Origin: a virus
Lineage: Duplodnaviria > Heunggongvirae > Uroviricota > Caudoviricetes
Virus record (IMG/VR): IMGVR_UViG_2648501392_000008
Reading direction: 5' to 3' (one strand)
Length of the DNA stretch: 15,547 nt
Notes under the pieces: generated by a model
The model's database searches: none
What the model saw: the letters and a program-made list of their open reading frames with translations, nothing else
Told to the model about the DNA's origin: nothing
Position numbers and translations under genes: made by a program
Shown here: one piece after another, positions 1,089 through 11,131 of the stretch
Layout: each line of letters starts with the position of its first letter
Position numbering within the stretch: the first letter of the stretch is position 1

Positions 1089-1615
1089 GTGCGTAACTCC
1101 GATAACTCGTTAAAGCGCTCCATAAACATCCCGTAGGCATGGCTCGGAGCCAGTGGAATAACTTTGAACATTTCTGTTGCCGGGATACCTTCCAGTACTG
1201 GCCAGAAAGAGCCATCATCAAGCCCGAGATCGCGGCGTTCGGTTGCCAGCATGATGAGATCGGCATATTTCACAGGCGTGCTCATAACCGGGGGTAACCC
1301 GTATTTCTCACGGATTACGGCGTCTATTTTTTCTTCCATCCGTTTATAGTCAGGAAGAAGGCGTTTCAGTGGAGCGGGAATATCCTGGCAATACGCTTCT
1401 GTTGCATCATGCATTAACGCTTCAAAAGCAAATTCCTGCGGCACCAGCTGGCTGCAAAGCACCGCATGTTGGGCGACACTGTAGAAGTGAGAAAGATGAC
1501 CGGCAAAGCGGCAGATATTTGAAAGGGAAACCGCGATATCGTTAATCACGATGTCGTCTTTATTTATCTTGTCATAATAAAAATGCTTCCCGGAAAAAGT
1601 TTTAATAAATGACAT
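1079..1615 (-). CDS. HD-domain phosphohydrolase (YfbR-like 5'-deoxynucleotidase family)
   Basis: ATG at 1615 with GGAGAA SD directly upstream (the ORF-track N-terminal extension to 1684 has no SD). Product MSFIKTFSGKHFYYD...HAVLCSQLV...ALMHDATEAY has the spacing and character of an HD-domain nucleotidase; the exact metal-binding residues were not mapped by eye. Confidence 0.6.
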   Translation of the reverse strand: MSFIKTFSGKHFYYDKINKDDIVINDIAVSLSNICRFAGHLSHFYSVAQHAVLCSQLVPQEFAFEALMHDATEAYCQDIPAPLKRLLPDYKRMEEKIDAVIREKYGLPPVMSTPVKYADLIMLATERRDLGLDDGSFWPVLEGIPATEMFKVIPLAPSHAYGMFMERFNELSELRTCA

Positions 1616-1705
1616 TTTGTTCTCCACGTTATATGCGCTGCACCGCTCTGAATTTTGATTGCAGCAATCCAGCCCATTTGACATGGGATGATTGCTGCAA
1701 TTTTT

Positions 1706-2624
1706 TTAAGTTGTTGGATTTTGGCTTTTATCTTCTTTGTAAGAAAGAAGGTCACACATCAAATTAACTACCTTGCTGAATTGGAAAAGGTCAGCGCCAG
1801 TCTGATGACGCCACTGGAATGCTTTATCATCTTCATCATTAAATGTCTGAGATTGAGTATTGATGCGCGAAAAATGGAAATTTTCGGTAAGAATGAAGGT
1901 CACACCGCAACCGGATAACTCCATTTTATCAGCAGTGAAACTACTACTAAGACTATCGGCCAGTTCGCTTTGAATTGACTCATGCTCAGCTGAGTAGCGA
2001 ATAATTTCCTTTTGATCTGCGTAGCGTGATAGCTGAATATAATTTCCGACAGTGAATCCTTCAAATGCATTGGCTGCACCATTGATGTAGTTATTCAGGC
2101 GTGTAGTCAGTCCATTCTTGATATCACTGATGTTGATTGTTTCTGTTTTCACTGAACCGACAACCTTAATCAGCATTGCGCATACCATACCGGCTATTAT
2201 TTTATTGGTTGTGTTGATTACCAATAATTTCTCATCAGTGCTGTACAATGCAAGAATCAGCGTAGACTTAACAAATGCCTGTTTGGCATAGATCTACTCG
2301 TACGTTATCAATAATGGCCAGTCGTTCGGCACGCTTTAATTTATTCCCGGACATATTTTCGATTGTTTGGATTCGAGAATTAGCTTCTTTCATGACGACA
2401 TGTCGGGGAATTATTTTCTGATCATGACGGATTACCATTGCGTACCCACCAGATATCGGAGTTACCAGTTCACCAGTGACAGGATTCTCTACAAAAGAGG
2501 ACCGTGAAAATTCTGTTTCCCCGATTTCAGAATAAGGGAGTTCGAGAAGATGACCTTCAATAGCCTGTATACTAGGTAATGTTGCTCGGTACACAATTGC
2601 GTTACGAAATTTTGGTAATTTCAT
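1706..2624 (-). pseudogene. rdgC: rdgC-like recombination-associated gene interrupted by a frameshift near 2270-2295
   Basis: ATG at 2624 with GAGGAAAA SD gives MKLPKFRNAIVYRATLP...KIIPRHVVMKEA, resembling the RdgC N-terminus (MLWFKNLMVYRL...KILPSPVIKQAL, recalled). The frame stops at 2268, and the continuation (QAFVKS...LLVINTTNKIIAGMV..., ORF 1706..2248) is in another frame. The two pieces sum to about 300 aa, the RdgC length. Confidence 0.55.
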
Positions 2625-2953
2625 TCTATTTTCCTCTGCACAAGATATTAGTTTCTCCACAAAACAGAGAAGAACACCTGCGGTGGCAGCCGCCCGGGTG
2701 GATTGGGTTATGAGCCCGTCGTCCGGTGATGCTCTTCTCTGTTTTGTAAAAAGAGCGGTACCAGCCGGAAGCAAGTGTACAAACTGGTACCGCCAAAGCA
2801 GTGGCTGCTGTGGTGACCGATGCTGATCTCCGGCTTGCGGTTATTTCAGACTCTCACGGGCGTTTAATTGCCCCGCCGAACAGCTCTTTTCCGCAATAGC
2901 TGCAATGTCTTTCGCGCATCAGCCTGCGCATTCACCACAACTCTAAAAACAAA

Positions 2954-3004
2954 TGTAGGATATCCAACATGCGAGTGTCAAGAGTTTATGTTGGTTATCC
3001 TACA
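2954..3004. promoter_or_regulatory. OL-like operator pair: 17-bp inverted repeat tgtaggatatccaacat (2954-2970) / atgttggttatcctaca (2988-3004)
   Basis: Near-perfect 17-bp inverted repeat (1 mismatch, 17-bp spacer) just downstream of the cI terminator; the same motif recurs in the cI-cro intergenic region. Confidence 0.5.
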
Positions 3005-3021
3005 TAAAAAGATAGGCTCAT

Positions 3022-3047
3022 AAAAAAACCGGGGATACCCCGGTTTT
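3022..3047 (-). terminator. Rho-independent terminator downstream of cI (bidirectional-looking hairpin)
   Basis: Stem accgggg / ccccggt with loop ata, flanked by an A-run on plus (= U-run on the minus transcript), about 20 bp after the cI stop. Confidence 0.65.
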
Positions 3048-3067: not shown

Positions 3068-3721
3068 TCAAAAATCCATTATTACTTGTTTGACAAGACC
3101 AACTATTCTGCAGTTCTCACCGCATTCAATAGTTTTATAGTTAGGATTTAGTGGGACGAGATACCTGTTCGGCCAGTCCTCAACAAATTTTTTGAGTGTC
3201 GCTTCTTGCCCACCATTGATATGGGCAACAACGATTTTTCCGTTAATACACTCTGTATCAATAATATCTGGCTCTACGATAACGATAGAACCTTCTGGTA
3301 TCGATGGTGAGCCGAGGGGATTGGTCATTGAATCACCACGGACCCGTAGTGCAAATGCCATTTCTGATACAAGGGCGGTAGTATAAACCCACTCTTCAGC
3401 ATCTTCTTTCCTGACACCAGGCTCCGTCATTGTCCATGAACCCGCCTGAACCCACGAGATTAGGGGGACTTTTTTAACTGCGAATATTTCAGGTTTTAGA
3501 TTTATCTTTGGTTCAGGCGAGCCTTTTCCGCTAACAAGCCACAGAGGATCGCATTTAAGTGCGTTGGCTAGGGCTTGAAGGTTGGCTCCATTTGGTTGGT
3601 AGTCGTCCTTTTCCCATCCAGTAACCGTGACACGGTTCACACCAGTCAAATCAGCCAGTGCTTGTTGTGTCAGGTTCAGTTCTTTTCGCCTTTGGCGAAT
3701 ACGATCACTCATGTTCATCAT
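3068..3721 (-). CDS. cI: cI-like phage repressor (N-terminal XRE-type HTH, C-terminal S24/LexA-type autopeptidase)
   Basis: N-terminus RIRQRRKELNLTQQALADLTGVNRVTVTGWE is a classic HTH; C-terminus has GDSM (catalytic Ser) and a downstream Lys in LexA/S24 arrangement. Divergent from the cro-like gene with operator repeats between them. Confidence 0.85.
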   Translation of the reverse strand: MMNMSDRIRQRRKELNLTQQALADLTGVNRVTVTGWEKDDYQPNGANLQALANALKCDPLWLVSGKGSPEPKINLKPEIFAVKKVPLISWVQAGSWTMTEPGVRKEDAEEWVYTTALVSEMAFALRVRGDSMTNPLGSPSIPEGSIVIVEPDIIDTECINGKIVVAHINGGQEATLKKFVEDWPNRYLVPLNPNYKTIECGENCRIVGLVKQVIMDF

Positions 3722-3783
3722 GTAGGCAATCCTACCACATGCCCATGTAGGATTCTTGACATTGGCATGTTGGATATCCTACA
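3721..3783. promoter_or_regulatory. OR-like operator cluster (3 sites: 3721-3736, 3746-3762, 3767-3783) in the cI-cro divergent promoter region
   Basis: Repeats of the TGTAGG...CCTACA half-site family: tgtaggcaatcctacc, tgtaggattcttgacat, atgttggatatcctaca. The last is the exact reverse complement of the site at 2954-2970. Confidence 0.55.
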
Positions 3784-3816
3784 TTTCTGCTTAACGTAAT
3801 TTAACGGGAGACAGAA

Positions 3817-4014
3817 ATGCGGAAATCCGACGTGATTAATTATTTCGGCGGAGTTTGTAAAATCGCCGAAGCCCTAGGTATTAAGCATCCGTCTGTTTCA
3901 GAGTGGCCTGAGATTATTCCTGAAGGCCGAGCGTACCAGTTAGAAAAAATTACTAACGGGAAACTGAAAGTTGACGTGTCTTTATATCAAAAGACTAACA
4001 GTGCTGCGGCATAA
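3817..4014 (+). CDS. Cro-like small DNA-binding protein (YdaS/Cro family)
   Basis: 65-aa ORF divergent from cI, GGGAGA SD 7 nt upstream of ATG; GGVCKIAEALGIKHPSVSEW is a YdaS/Cro-type HTH. Confidence 0.65.
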   Translation: MRKSDVINYFGGVCKIAEALGIKHPSVSEWPEIIPEGRAYQLEKITNGKLKVDVSLYQKTNSAAA

Positions 4015-4041: not shown

Positions 4042-4626
4042 GTGGGTAAAGAACCTGAATGGAAAGTTGATAAACAACCAGCATGGCTGGTGGCAGCAAT
4101 ACGAAGAACGATTGCTGATTTACCTCATGGCTATGAGGAAGCAGCAGAAATTCTTGGTTTGTATAAATCTGATGATATCACCCCAGCAAAAGATCAATTG
4201 CATAACAGACTGCGTAGCGGTGGGGATCAAATTTTTCCACTTGAGTGGGCCATGGTTTTACAGGATGCCAGTGGTACCAGGCATGTAACAGATGCAATAG
4301 CCCGTCGTAGTAATGGGGTGTTTGTGCCGCTGGTGGTCATTGATGACATTGACAATGGTGACATTAATCAGCGGCTGATGGAGTCAATAGAATGGATTGG
4401 CAAGCATTCCCAGTACTTACGCAAGGCAACTGCTGATGGAGTTATTGACCAGGCTGAGCGTGAGCAAATCGAAGAGAACAGCTACCAAGTAATGGCGAAG
4501 TGGCAGGAGCATTTAACACTGTTATTTCGTGTTTTTTGTGCGCCGGAAAAGAGTAACGCCCGCGAGTGTGCAGCTCCGGGCGTCGTGGCGTCGATTGCTT
4601 CTGGTTGTGGAGAAACTAACGCATGA
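4042..4626 (+). CDS. CII-like / YdaT-like prophage regulatory protein
   Basis: GTG start with GAGGA SD 7 nt upstream; position immediately after the Cro/YdaS-like gene; product loosely resembles YdaT / phage-186-CII-type proteins (recalled, not searched). Confidence 0.5.
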   Translation: MGKEPEWKVDKQPAWLVAAIRRTIADLPHGYEEAAEILGLYKSDDITPAKDQLHNRLRSGGDQIFPLEWAMVLQDASGTRHVTDAIARRSNGVFVPLVVIDDIDNGDINQRLMESIEWIGKHSQYLRKATADGVIDQAEREQIEENSYQVMAKWQEHLTLLFRVFCAPEKSNARECAAPGVVASIASGCGETNA

Positions 4627-5783
4627 ATAGTTTAACGGCAAATAACCGTTTGTCGCAACAGCTGGTGGTCAGCGTCGCTGAACACCTGTTGTTACGGCAT
4701 GAATGCAGATTACCAAATCACCTGGCTGTAAGTAACCACAGAGAACTTTACCTGACTGTGGGGGGCGAGTTGTGCAGGAACTTAACCGCTGGTTTCGTGA
4801 CGGAAGAGGGCTTTATGTCCATGTTATTCGTTGGGAGCCAGAAACACAGCGCGTTATCTATCTTCGCAAAGACTACCCGCATGAGTGCTTTAGTCCTTTG
4901 TGGAAATTCAGGCGTGATTTTGTTGAGTGTGAAGGACCACCAGCATATTGATTCTGCAATTCCGGGACGTTACACTGCTCAGGCACCTTATAAAGCGGGT
5001 GCCGGGATTGGCGTCCTGAAATTGTCAACGGCGATGTATGACGCGCCAGCGTCTTTTTTATCGTCCGCATTTGCTCACATCCAGATTATGGTGGGCTGGG
5101 CGGGGGCACCGAAAGGTGCGCCGGTCTCCGTTGACGCCGGTTACGCCAACCCCGTCCAGTTCACCACCAGTGAAATTGGCGTTTCCGGTGGTGGAAGTTT
5201 TTCACTGTCAACGGAGGCTGCCATCATGGCTACGATCCCAGCCCTCACTCAACCTGAAATCACCATTGACAACGGCCAGGCCGTTACCACTTCTTTGGCT
5301 GTTGCCAACTTCTTCTCCAAGCGTCACGACGATGTGCTGAAAAAGATCCGCACTCTGGATTGTTCCCCAGAGTTTTGTGCCCGCAATTTTGCGGAGACAT
5401 CGATTTCGGTAAATCAACCGAACGGTGGTACACGCAAGCTCCCTTGCTATCAAATCACACGAGACGGTTTTGCGTTTCTTGCTATGGGTTTCACGGGTAA
5501 ACGTGCTGCCCGGTTCAAAGAGGCATACATAAATGCCTTTAACCAGATGGAGAAACAGCTTTCAAAGCCCGCTGTACCGAGCGACGTTGCACATAACGCC
5601 AGCGTTCTCTGTTCCTACATTTCATCAATTCATCAGGTCTGGCTGCAGCAGCTTTATCCTATGTTGGCAAAAGCCGAATCTCCGCTGGCTGTTAGCTTAT
5701 ATGACTATATTAATGATGCTTCGGCGCTGGCCAGTCTCATAAATTTGTCGCTGAACCCTTCAGAGGTAAGGGGGCGCAAATGA
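4623..5783 (+). CDS. Rha-domain phage regulatory protein with a roughly 200-aa N-terminal region of unknown function
   Basis: ATGA overlap with the upstream stop. Residues about 210-310 (QAVTTSLAVANFFSKRHDDVLKKIRTL...ITRDGFAFLAMGFTGKRAARFKEAYINAFNQME) match the Rha/pRha domain. An internal ATG at 5226 with GGAGG upstream could also initiate a standalone Rha protein. Confidence 0.55.
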   Translation: MNSLTANNRLSQQLVVSVAEHLLLRHECRLPNHLAVSNHRELYLTVGGELCRNLTAGFVTEEGFMSMLFVGSQKHSALSIFAKTTRMSALVLCGNSGVILLSVKDHQHIDSAIPGRYTAQAPYKAGAGIGVLKLSTAMYDAPASFLSSAFAHIQIMVGWAGAPKGAPVSVDAGYANPVQFTTSEIGVSGGGSFSLSTEAAIMATIPALTQPEITIDNGQAVTTSLAVANFFSKRHDDVLKKIRTLDCSPEFCARNFAETSISVNQPNGGTRKLPCYQITRDGFAFLAMGFTGKRAARFKEAYINAFNQMEKQLSKPAVPSDVAHNASVLCSYISSIHQVWLQQLYPMLAKAESPLAVSLYDYINDASALASLINLSLNPSEVRGRK

Positions 5784-6300: not shown

Positions 6301-7304
6301 GCCGTTACGCCCCCACACCGGAAGTTATGGCTATTGGTCAAATTAATATTTCCGGCAATGTTACACCTGCGACCTGGTGGAAATATATTCGACTACCCAG
6401 TGGGCGTCCGGATGCGACGGCTATCGCTCTGCTTTCAGAGATCGTTTACTGGTACCGCCCGACAGAGGTCAGGGATGAGCACACCGGAGCGTTGCTGGGA
6501 TATCGCAAGCGTTTTCAGGGCGACAAACTGCAAAGAAGCTACCAGGCGTTTGCTGAGCAGTTTGGTTTCGGGAAAAGGGAAACCGCAGATGCGCTGAAGC
6601 GTCTGCGCGATGCAGGGTTTATTACTCTGGATTTACGCACGGTGGAAATGCTCGATGGGGTGAAATGCAGCAATATTTTGTTTGTCGGGATCAACCCACA
6701 GGCAATTGCGGCCATCACCACACCTTCTTCTGTTTCGCCAGAAAGTAACAGCAATAATGCAATCAGCGATACAGCTATTACGTTAAAACGGAACACCCCC
6801 CGACGTCATAACGGAACAGGGGATACGCCGAATGTTGATACAAATACAGAGATTACTACAGAGATTACTACAGAGATTACTACAGAGATTACAACGGAGA
6901 CTAAAAACACTATTGGCGCATCCGCTGACGCGTCTGCACCAGCGCGTTCTGCCAGACAGGAATATTCACCGGAATTTGAACAGGCCTGGCAGGAATATCC
7001 CAAACGTGCTGGTGGTAATTCAAAATCCGCCGCTTTTAAAGCCTGGAAAGCCCGAATCAGGGAAGGTGTGACACCCGAAACCATGCTCGACGGTGTGAAA
7101 CGCTATGCCGCCTGGGTGCGTGTCTCTGGAAATACCGGTACCCAGTTCGTGAAGCAGGCGTCGACGTTCTTTGGTCCGGATCGTCATTTCGAAGAATCCT
7201 GGGAAGTTCCTGCGGTATCTGCAGCCAGACGCGAGGACCCGTACTTCAAAGCCAGTTACGACAACGTGGACTACAGCCAGATCCCGGAAGGATTCAGGGG
7301 GTGA
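6297..7304 (+). CDS. Phage replication initiation protein (lambda O-like / replisome organiser) with origin iterons inside the gene
   Basis: GGAAGGAGG SD before ATG 6297; N-terminal wHTH-like region; C-terminal EFEQAWQEYPKRAGGNSKSAAFKAWKARI motif typical of enterobacterial prophage replication proteins; 12-bp iterons within the coding sequence. Confidence 0.7.
   Translation: MSRYAPTPEVMAIGQINISGNVTPATWWKYIRLPSGRPDATAIALLSEIVYWYRPTEVRDEHTGALLGYRKRFQGDKLQRSYQAFAEQFGFGKRETADALKRLRDAGFITLDLRTVEMLDGVKCSNILFVGINPQAIAAITTPSSVSPESNSNNAISDTAITLKRNTPRRHNGTGDTPNVDTNTEITTEITTEITTEITTETKNTIGASADASAPARSARQEYSPEFEQAWQEYPKRAGGNSKSAAFKAWKARIREGVTPETMLDGVKRYAAWVRVSGNTGTQFVKQASTFFGPDRHFEESWEVPAVSAARREDPYFKASYDNVDYSQIPEGFRG
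6846..6893. repeat. Iteron array: 4 tandem copies of 12-bp acagagattact (candidate phage replication origin)
   Basis: Direct tandem repeats at 6846-6857, 6858-6869, 6870-6881 and 6882-6893 (last copy 1 mismatch), encoding TEIT repeats in the O-like protein. Confidence 0.7.
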
Positions 7305-10742: not shown

Positions 10743-10759
10743 TTTTGTGGAGAAAGTTG

Positions 10760-11131
10760 ATGCGTGATATTCAAATGGTTCTTGAACGTTGGGGGGCATG
10801 GGTGGCAAATAATCACGAGGATGTGGAATGGTCATCTGTTGCTGCAGGTTTTAAGGGATTAATTCCTTCGAAAGTAAAATCCCGCCCGCAATGTAGCGAT
10901 GACGATGGCCTGATCATTAGCTCTGCGATGACAGTTCTTAAGAAAAAGGAACCGTATCAATACGAATTACTGGAAATGTATTATGTGTATGGGGTTACAT
11001 TACGGGTGTTGGGGGTAAAACTGGGGATATCACTTAATCAGGTTGTTATCAGACTGCAGAAAGCTGAAGGGTTTATTGACGGTTGTCTGGCAATGTTGGG
11101 GGTATCTTTAGAAATTGATTGTTACATATAG
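10760..11131 (+). CDS. Late-gene antiterminator Q (QuuD/phage-21 type)
   Basis: ATG 10760 with GGAGAAAG SD; the N-terminus MRDIQMVLERWGAWVANNHEDVEWSS matches the recalled N-terminus of DLP12 QuuD. Confidence 0.8.
   Translation: MRDIQMVLERWGAWVANNHEDVEWSSVAAGFKGLIPSKVKSRPQCSDDDGLIISSAMTVLKKKEPYQYELLEMYYVYGVTLRVLGVKLGISLNQVVIRLQKAEGFIDGCLAMLGVSLEIDCYI

Follow-up and report, generated by a model that had tools for sequence, protein, structure and literature searches.

A structured leader RNA element with an initiator-tRNA-like hairpin in the early-left operon of N-less temperate phages

Introduction

The RNA sRNA-17, 193 nt in length, was mapped by 5'/3' rapid amplification of cDNA ends (RACE) and Northern blotting in an mEp460-like prophage of Escherichia coli K1 strain RS218 (PMC7719688). 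Here, we analyzed the corresponding region in a 15,547-nt stretch of tailed-phage DNA (IMG/VR record IMGVR_UViG_2648501392_000008; "the window" means this whole stretch), which represents the immunity and early region of a temperate E. coli phage of the SfV/mEp460/ST64B type. sRNA-17 shares its strand and its 3' end, located in the same U-run, with the upstream two-thirds of the early-left leader in the window, and this upstream part is what was already known. New is an inverted-repeat element of ~105 nt (positions 2650 to 2754, minus strand), which begins where sRNA-17 ends. It is not part of sRNA-17, is not mentioned in PMC7719688, and is absent from Rfam 15 and from the literature we found. 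The element belongs among the structured leader RNAs of phages, and it has an unusual hairpin that matches the initiator tRNA, tRNA-fMet.

Other described systems share single traits with the element. The put RNA of HK022 is likewise a nascent structured RNA in the early leader of an N-less lambdoid phage. It consists of two adjacent stem-loops of ~35 nt each (~70 nt in total) (PMC9378689), is present in two copies (at pL and pR), and is located ahead of the terminators that it suppresses; in copy number and position, the element differs from it. The C4 RNA of phages P1 and P7 and the CI RNA of phage P4 (clan CL00128) resemble the element in having a long stem that encloses two hairpins and in lying within an operon leader, and they are excised by processing, as sketched below for the element. 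Finally, the RNase III sites of the lambda N leader and T7 R1.1 are, like the element, long near-perfect helices in a leader or intercistronic position upstream of a ribosome-binding site.

Results and Discussion

The inverted repeat closes a three-way-junction RNA

The first-pass annotation of the window pointed to a perfect 15-bp inverted repeat, ACAAAACAGAGAAGA (2659-2673) and TCTTCTCTGTTTTGT (2733-2747), around a 59-nt spacer, and the repeat is present exactly in this form. It can be extended to 25-nt arms (2659-2683 and 2723-2747) with 84% complementarity, and when the minus strand is read as RNA, G.U pairs lengthen it to a helix of 24 to 25 bp. The minus-strand fold had a predicted energy of -49.2 kcal/mol, compared to -26.7 ± 3.5 kcal/mol for 200 shuffled sequences, none of which was as good (z = -6.4); for the plus strand, the shuffle comparison gave z = -3.9. 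The repeat is the core of the closing helix of a conserved structured RNA on the minus (pL) strand, running from 2754 to 2650.

According to the covariance model, the consensus fold, and covariation, this RNA is a three-way junction of the helices P1, P2, and P3. P1 is the 24-bp closing helix. Its 5' strand (2728 to 2752, minus strand) contains the right arm of the repeat and the U-run of a terminator described below, while its 3' strand (2654 to 2678, minus strand) contains the left arm; the basal pairs, U.G and U-A, are formed between the U-run and GUGGAGA. P2 bears the internal hairpin GGG-CUCAUAA-CCC. P3 is a variable hairpin, GCGG-CUGCCA-CCGC in the window (2680 to 2693, minus strand), and its arm is 14 to 39 nt long among relatives.

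To align 57 distinct sequences, a covariance model (R1) built from 12 sequences was used. In these sequences, 96.8% of the pair positions were paired, compared to 43 to 55% when the partners were slid by 1 to 3 columns. Double-sided changes were detected in 16 of the 38 pairs, among them 10 of the 24 pairs of P1, and three of the four P3 pairs covaried; none of 500 shuffles equaled the observed values on any measure. Compensatory changes were also plain in MAFFT alignments made without the model. Thus, the repeat proposed earlier is conserved in related prophages, as judged by fold prediction and covariation, and it is conserved as an RNA structure.

The covariance model scored 114 bits on the minus strand and 35 bits on the plus strand. 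Furthermore, with 233 G.U versus 13 A.C pair positions, the pL strand had 96.8% of its positions paired, compared to 86.6% for the opposite strand. Since G.U pairs outnumber A.C pairs to this extent, the structure belongs to the leftward transcript. We therefore give next to no credence to a function at the DNA level, as a cruciform, a recombination site, or a protein-binding palindrome. The 15-bp arms are perfect as DNA and the mosaic boundaries at 2648 and 2815 are close by, but one of the two strands forms a markedly better structure, a variable-length P3 and a three-way junction are RNA-like features, and the repressor operators differ from the repeat in both sequence and place. The strand-specific G.U pattern also disfavors the recombination structure that had been considered for the repeat.

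The region had been described as lacking a plausible open reading frame (ORF). In line with this, no conserved ORF was found, and the element lengths of the relatives fall into all three classes modulo 3 (25, 23, and 9 sequences), which excludes a coding explanation. As had been suggested, the region downstream of the OL operators and pL is an early leader that is transcribed leftward and not translated.

Searches with Rfam 15 (gathering scores and E ≤ 10; the window and sub-regions) gave no family match over the element; the best rows there, a hairpin ribozyme (17.5 bits) and a plant miRNA (17.1 bits), are noise. We also found no description of it in the literature on tRNA-like or RNase III leader elements and on initiator-tRNA mimics in prophages. 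In RefSeq, the element is unannotated or labeled "hypothetical protein." Taken together, the element is a strongly supported structured RNA that was not annotated before and a candidate for a new RNA family. The covariation in hand suffices to build a model of such a family.

Distribution and wider family

The repeat lies within a DNA module of mosaic character, with junctions near the element at 2648 and 2815. In mEp460, cdtI, Ayreon, SfV, SfII, SfIV, and many Stx2 phages, this module is 97 to 99% identical; in Salmonella ST64B and a Klebsiella phage, the identity is ~85%. When genomes were scanned for the exact core (see below), species-representative genomes of ~14 enterobacterial genera proved to carry the element, as did more than 120 IMG/VR contigs. 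Terminator and element together were present in 2,520 of 5,426 complete E. coli genomes (46%), and the median number of places per genome was 1; 3,350 of the 3,362 places were chromosomal, consistent with prophage copies. The hosts of the element include Stx2-converting, SfV-type serotype-converting, and ST64B-type prophages, in which it is almost never annotated.

Most family members are located downstream of a cI-like repressor gene and ahead of yfdP-family or rdgC genes. Overall, the gene following the element varies (yfdP family, two kinds of rdgC, or a holin gene), showing that the element travels with leader and terminator and not with one particular gene. Two divergent loci, L029 (~4877-4979) and L033 (~85-200), have the same core with a different closing helix. 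They are late-operon leaders, in which a Q antiterminator gene and a tR'-like terminator precede the element and holin-endolysin genes follow it. Among GenBank phages, the two late-leader variants had no relatives beyond the holin region.

The covariance model also matched phage P1, on the strand that carries its tRNA-Asn and tRNA-Thr genes. Inspection by eye and folding revealed four to five tandem long-stem units between tRNA-Asn/tRNA-Thr and tciA (~1441-2664, minus strand, in locus L007; OP279344.1, 63634-67769, reverse complement). Two of the units have a CAU-loop hairpin, ACGGG(G/U)UCAUAUCCCAAUCUA, and one has the T-arm-like GGGUUCGAAUCCC. Units and copies of a structured domain alternate, and one of these copies shares 97% identity with positions 2806-2941 of the window. 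A P1 transcriptome preprint contains nothing on this element-related region.

In all contexts examined, including the units in the P1 tRNA operon, the element was oriented sense to the operon. The common position is just past the first terminator of a phage operon. In a separate case, the element of an IMG/VR prophage (L106, ~6711-6900) begins ~125 nt beyond the stop codon of the repressor gene; neither a terminator nor an sRNA-17-type domain lies between them, and the operon that comes next is short, with xis-like and integrase genes at its end.

It could be argued that such a distribution reflects a functionless selfish or relic sequence, i.e., a palindromic repeat similar to a miniature inverted-repeat transposable element (MITE) or a decayed tRNA-fMet fragment in a hairpin, spread by mosaic recombination. 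The terminal inverted repeats, the small size (105 to 130 bp), the several paralogous copies in P1, the variety of operon contexts (early-left, late leader, and tRNA operon) together with the mosaic junctions, and the partial tRNA identity fit this explanation. However, the orientation to transcription was the same in every case, and the compensatory changes and the strand-specific G.U bias point to selection on RNA. The core has remained invariant over ~14 genera amid diverging neighbors, and the position abutting the terminator U-run is fixed. Moreover, the element ends show neither a target-site duplication nor a flanking direct repeat, and there is one copy per prophage, with none elsewhere in the host chromosomes. 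We consider a selfish or relic origin quite improbable. Membership among MITE- or enterobacterial repetitive intergenic consensus (ERIC)-like repeats was rejected on account of the median of one copy per genome, the location in prophage operon leaders and sense orientation in all contexts examined, and the lack of flanking repeats.

The element follows the terminator of the sRNA-17 leader

Between pL and the repeat, an intrinsic terminator had been overlooked in the first sequence reading (2748 to 2793, minus strand). Its G+C-rich stem, GCGGUACCAG/CUGGUACCGC (2793-2784/2764-2755), is a 10-bp perfect inverted repeat that becomes a 13-bp stem in the minimum-energy fold, with a U-run (2752-2748) behind it. 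In 97 of 102 distinct variants, a hairpin with 5 to 7 U residues immediately precedes the element. The hairpin sequence differs by lineage while hairpin and U-run are kept, which supports the assignment as an intrinsic terminator. Since the element starts in the terminator U-run, it is contained only in read-through transcripts.

We placed sRNA-17 on the window using its published primers and Northern probe (PMC7719688). The full-length primers matched at 2749-2780 and 2910-2942, the RACE primers at 2796-2814 and 2894-2914, and the probe at 2831-2880, each with 0 to 1 mismatches. The RACE-mapped 3' end corresponds to position 2749, inside the U-run, and the other end to 2942. Read from 2942 to 2749, the window agrees with sRNA-17 in identity, strand, and 3' end, and a homologue of ~194 nt (2749 to 2942, minus strand), comprising a structured leader domain and the terminator, is thus present. 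The element is located directly behind this 3' end mapped in vivo. The order in the leader is pL, sRNA-17, terminator, element, a small hairpin with the Shine-Dalgarno sequence, and the first early-left gene.

The published "virulence sRNA" sRNA-17 is the terminated leader of the early-left operon. In the window, this RNA starts directly at the repressor-controlled pL, whereas an ArcA-regulated promoter in a longer leader was proposed for RS218 (PMC7719688). Replacement of sRNA-17 by a resistance cassette in RS218 increased yfdP expression ~95-fold (PMC7719688, Table 1). In the RS218 context, the element is immediately followed by yfdP, and we infer that the increase in yfdP expression reflects transcription across the leader reaching downstream genes in cis (a polar effect). 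More generally, the sRNA-17 "targets" yfdP and yfdR are genes immediately downstream, and since sRNA-17 is the terminated leader of the same operon, their responses may be cis effects. How the terminator is relieved may have a plain answer, namely, that it is simply leaky. Terminator and element mark the decision point for expression of the early-left functions (recombination, excision, and integration) in this N-less phage family.

The sRNA-17-type domain also resembles other RNAs. Subthreshold matches to model positions 31-147 of STnc100 (Rfam RF02076; 34 to 35 bits versus a gathering score of 47) were detected in the ST64B leader (L004, 2191-2309) and in P1 (L007, 1324-1444); in P1, it is copies of the structured domain other than the one with 97% identity to the window that resemble STnc100 below threshold. 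The leader of the window itself had no STnc100 match at E ≤ 10. This likeness concerns the sRNA-17-type structured domain and not the inverted-repeat element. STnc100 and PasD adjoin Q and pR', not pL (bioRxiv 10.64898/2026.05.13.724894). Like the sRNA-17-type domain, they are promoter-proximal RNAs of phage operons that end at a terminator, and all three may belong to one broader family of such RNAs. The layout of a promoter-proximal RNA and a terminator would also fit a riboswitch-like arrangement.

The position behind a terminator bears on antitermination, which had been suggested in view of HK022 put and the missing N gene. Indeed, no N-like gene is present in the window or in the complete left arms of its relatives Stx2a_1447, mEp460, and ST64B. 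A put-like RNA would bind the transcribing RNA polymerase and make it termination resistant in place of N. Such a role would suit a phage family without an N gene, a highly conserved nascent-RNA structure close to the start of the early-left operon, and an invariant core that could contact polymerase, and HK022 putR lies at a similar distance from its promoter (~270 nt; PMC9378689). However, put consists of two adjacent stem-loops, while the element forms a single three-way junction that is closed by 24 bp. Furthermore, the element lies after and not before the leader terminator, and it is present in one copy: the covariance model found 2650-2754 and its reverse strand only, with nothing behind pR, and a motif search for the core (≤3 mismatches) also yielded a single copy in the window. 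When HK022 putL and putR were compared with the window by blastn-short, the matches listed, all of them for putL, included nothing in 2625-2950, a weak test, as putL and putR share just 7- to 8-nt words. No strong minus-strand terminators that would have to be overcome were found downstream of the element in the left operons of the window, mEp460, and ST64B, using a scanner that detects loops of 3 to 8 nt only. Finally, some members are located behind tR' in operons that already have Q, and a polymerase modifier would hardly be expected as four to five tandem paralogues in the P1 tRNA operon. With architecture, copy number, position after the terminator, and late-operon context all contrary to it, put-like antitermination appears improbable.

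A lambda-type N/nut system was rejected as well: N is not the first pL gene, and the sole antiterminator in the window is a Q-like late protein (10745 to 11131). Near pR, a search revealed no boxB-like hairpins of the type that carries the conserved GCAG loop in the leader.

The invariant core resembles the anticodon arm of initiator tRNA

The most conserved part of the element is the core GACGGGCUCAUAACCCAAUCCA (2699 to 2720, minus strand), with GGG at 2717-2715, the loop CUCAUAA at 2714-2708, and CCC at 2707-2705. In the 57 distinct sequences, the 21-nt core GACGGGCUCAU-ACCCAAUCC is invariant except for loop position 6, which is A or U; the exception (A37U) occurs in the ST64B and Klebsiella types. 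The core was retained over ~14 genera while the stems varied and the adjacent sequence diverged, and also in the divergent loci L029 and L033, in which the sequence of P1 is different.

Within the core, CGGGCUCAUAACCC shows a 14-nt identity to the anticodon arm of the E. coli metZ tRNA-fMet. This identity covers three G-C pairs and the entire 7-nt loop CUCAUAA, including C32 and A38. Three G-C pairs in the anticodon stem are the mark of initiator tRNAs. The element as such is no tRNA: this candidate was rejected, as it has no acceptor, D, or T arm, ARAGORN detected 0 tRNA or tmRNA genes in the window, and the Rfam tRNA model had no match to the element at E ≤ 10. Similar to the thrS operator and viral tRNA-like mimics, the element can be compared with a tRNA, but with tRNA-fMet it shares only the 14-nt anticodon arm, and beyond 3 bp the stem is mismatched.

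The resemblance gives rise to the main rival of the reading that we prefer (see below). In this alternative, the helix would be cut by RNase III or a similar enzyme and the 60- to 90-nt apical domain released as a stable, trans-acting small RNA that presents an initiator anticodon arm. During the early lytic phase, it could be a decoy for nucleases that attack the tRNA-fMet anticodon arm (enteric VapC/MvpT) or a ligand of the 30S P-site, of translation initiation factor 3 (IF3), or of methionyl-tRNA synthetase (MetRS). Besides the 14-nt identity with its three G-C pairs and C32/A38 and the invariance of the core amid varying stems, several observations fit such a mimic. The P1 paralogous units adjoin real tRNA genes, and one of them has the T-arm-like hairpin. 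The topology, a long stem enclosing two hairpins, is that of the processed C4 RNA of P1, and a C4 homologue is present in the window. For anti-defense functions, the head of an early operon is a typical site. Furthermore, all tested VapCs cleave anticodon-stem-loop-type structures, and the target of the VapCs of Salmonella and Shigella, which cut the anticodon stem-loop, is tRNA-fMet (review PMC7180214).

On the other hand, the released product is purely hypothetical, the stem is mimicked over 3 bp only, and loop positions 32 and 38 are altered in the P1 paralogues. ARAGORN, the Rfam tRNA model, and the Rfam C4 model all fail to recognize the element, complementary targets within ±3 kb are not enriched, and an RNA from a single locus would face competition from cellular tRNA-fMet, which is abundant. 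We regard the trans-acting mimic as unlikely. Less likely still is a dedicated mimic of the initiator anticodon arm that would act either in cis, by docking to the 30S P-site so that ribosomes are loaded or held at the first cistron, or as an excised decoy that spares the tRNA-fMet pool from VapC/MvpT. If this were true, the decoy would protect phage translation from the VapC/MvpT proteins of Shigella, Salmonella, and E. coli plasmids, and the element would form, together with the T-arm-like and CAU-loop units of P1, a family of phage "tRNA-part" RNAs. More broadly, a functional initiator-tRNA hairpin would be an example of anticodon-arm mimicry by a bacterial virus, either in translation initiation or in anti-toxin defense.

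Despite the shared topology, membership in the C4/CI clan was rejected. The C4 model had no match to the element at E ≤ 10; it matched the window at 5084-5171. The element, in contrast to C4 and CI, lacks an RCCA 3' end for RNase P and has no nearby targets: in a search for antisense targets of the core within ±3 kb at 140 loci, the 172 8-mer complements found were at chance level (~1.4 expected per locus), and a recurrent complement 1.8 kb downstream is one inherited coding sequence within the yfdR homologue. Pairing of the loop (CUCAU) with the start codon region of yfdP (AUGAG) was also considered and dropped, as the start regions of rdgC (in the window) and sb37 (in ST64B), inspected by eye, do not contain AUGAG. 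Independently, we observed a 9-nt perfect complementarity between the element loop (GGCUCAUAA, 2708-2716) and positions 3015-3023 just beyond the terminator of the repressor gene; matches of this kind are about as frequent in this region as expected by chance.

A proposed cis-acting leader module

Weighing these data, we prefer the reading that the element is a cis-acting posttranscriptional leader module that combines RNase III-type processing with factor binding. We assign a probability of roughly 0.45 to this proposal. The element would be made only upon read-through of the leader terminator and would then act posttranscriptionally and in cis; it would not itself be the antiterminator. The P1 helix would be a site of processing by a double-strand-specific, RNase III-type enzyme and a determinant of stability. 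Putative cleavage in P1 would detach the sRNA-17 leader and set the 5' region of the early-left mRNA. The apical domain with the initiator-tRNA anticodon hairpin would be the binding site of a host factor, most plausibly of the translation initiation machinery, with a putative effect on the expression of the downstream genes.

The size of P1 is consistent with this proposal. RNase III acts on at least ~20 bp of largely uninterrupted double-stranded RNA, and 19 to 24 of the 24 P1 pairs are canonical in each of the 57 sequences. Helices of such size and regularity are cut by RNase III in the lambda N leader and in the T7 early sites. In addition, RNase III sites and the P1 phage units both occur in tandem or intercistronic positions.

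Several points weigh against the proposed module. RNase III needs no conserved apical sequence, and processing alone cannot explain the invariant core; indeed, the known sites in the lambda N leader and T7 R1.1 have, unlike the element, neither an invariant apical sequence nor a tRNA-like hairpin. The likeness to tRNA-fMet is limited to the 3-bp stem and the loop, with the next two stem pairs mismatched, and the loops of the phage P1 paralogues read GUCAUAU or UUCAUAU. The closing helix of L033 is only ~7 bp long, with a fold that is not significantly stable (z = -1.4), and L106 and a few other loci have no terminator ahead of the element. Furthermore, the covariation alignment was fitted to the model, so that the counts are biased in favor of the structure, and the sequences are not phylogenetically independent.

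Genetic context of the element in the window

Upstream of the leader, the window encodes an S24/HTH repressor (3068 to 3721, minus strand), the gene of which is closed by a hairpin terminator (3025-3047), and, further on, a P22-type Cro (3817 to 4014), a CII-like protein, a Rha-family antirepressor, and replication genes. The pL promoter (2952 to 2981, minus strand) consists of TTGACA (2981-2976), an 18-nt spacer, and TACATT (2957-2952), with 10 of 12 positions matching the consensus; hexamers and spacing are identical to those of pR (3756-3785, plus strand). From the promoter spacing, transcription is predicted to start at ~2944. The operators that the first-pass annotation had called OL-like are real. 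Three copies of the 18-bp repressor site ATGTAGGATAWCCAACAT are present in the window, compared to 0.01 matches expected by chance: OL1 (2953 to 2970) overlaps the pL -10 hexamer, OL2 (2988 to 3005) is also an arm of an inverted repeat, and the third copy (3767-3784) overlaps the -10 hexamer of pR.

Downstream of the element, a linker (2625 to 2649, minus strand) with a weak hairpin (~2645-2632) overlaps the Shine-Dalgarno sequence AGAGGA of rdgC. Most relatives have a stronger hairpin at this position, with the conserved loop UGGCAG, UUGCAG, or GUGCAG, and a function of the hairpin over the Shine-Dalgarno sequence is conceivable. Many P3 hairpins of the element have the UUGCAG loop, too.

The first leftward gene is rdgC with an ATG at 2624, as noted earlier, but the gene is not intact. 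Compared to the intact 305-amino-acid rdgC of strain CAU16175, the window gene (1706-2624, minus strand) has an extra C at ~2286, and this 1-nt insertion splits it by a frameshift into two ORFs (2268 to 2624 and 1706 to 2248). It is either a pseudogene or the result of a sequencing error. The first pL genes of these phages are rdgC or members of the yfdP family (phrog_204, of unknown function). In Stx2a_1447, the left arm has the order cI, leader, element, yfdP, yfdQ, and yfdR, followed further on by xis and int, and mEp460 and ST64B are arranged alike.

The CPS-53 prophage of E. coli K-12 (L152, 7248-7604) has retained yfdP, yfdQ, and yfdR, while repressor, leader, sRNA-17, and element were lost. 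K-12 is a strain used in surveys of RNase III targets. Because of the loss in CPS-53, K-12 data sets are uninformative on the element.

In the pR operon on the plus strand, matches to isrK (62 bits; 4983-5059) and to the C4 antisense RNA (81 bits; 5084-5171) were detected upstream of the Rha-family antirepressor gene, a layout similar to that of P1 immI. Both regions are located within a 386-amino-acid ORF (4623 to 5783). The Pfam "Ash" match of this ORF (amino acids 117-212) corresponds to the same DNA that encodes the isrK and C4 RNAs, and therefore, the Ash-matching part may not be a real protein.

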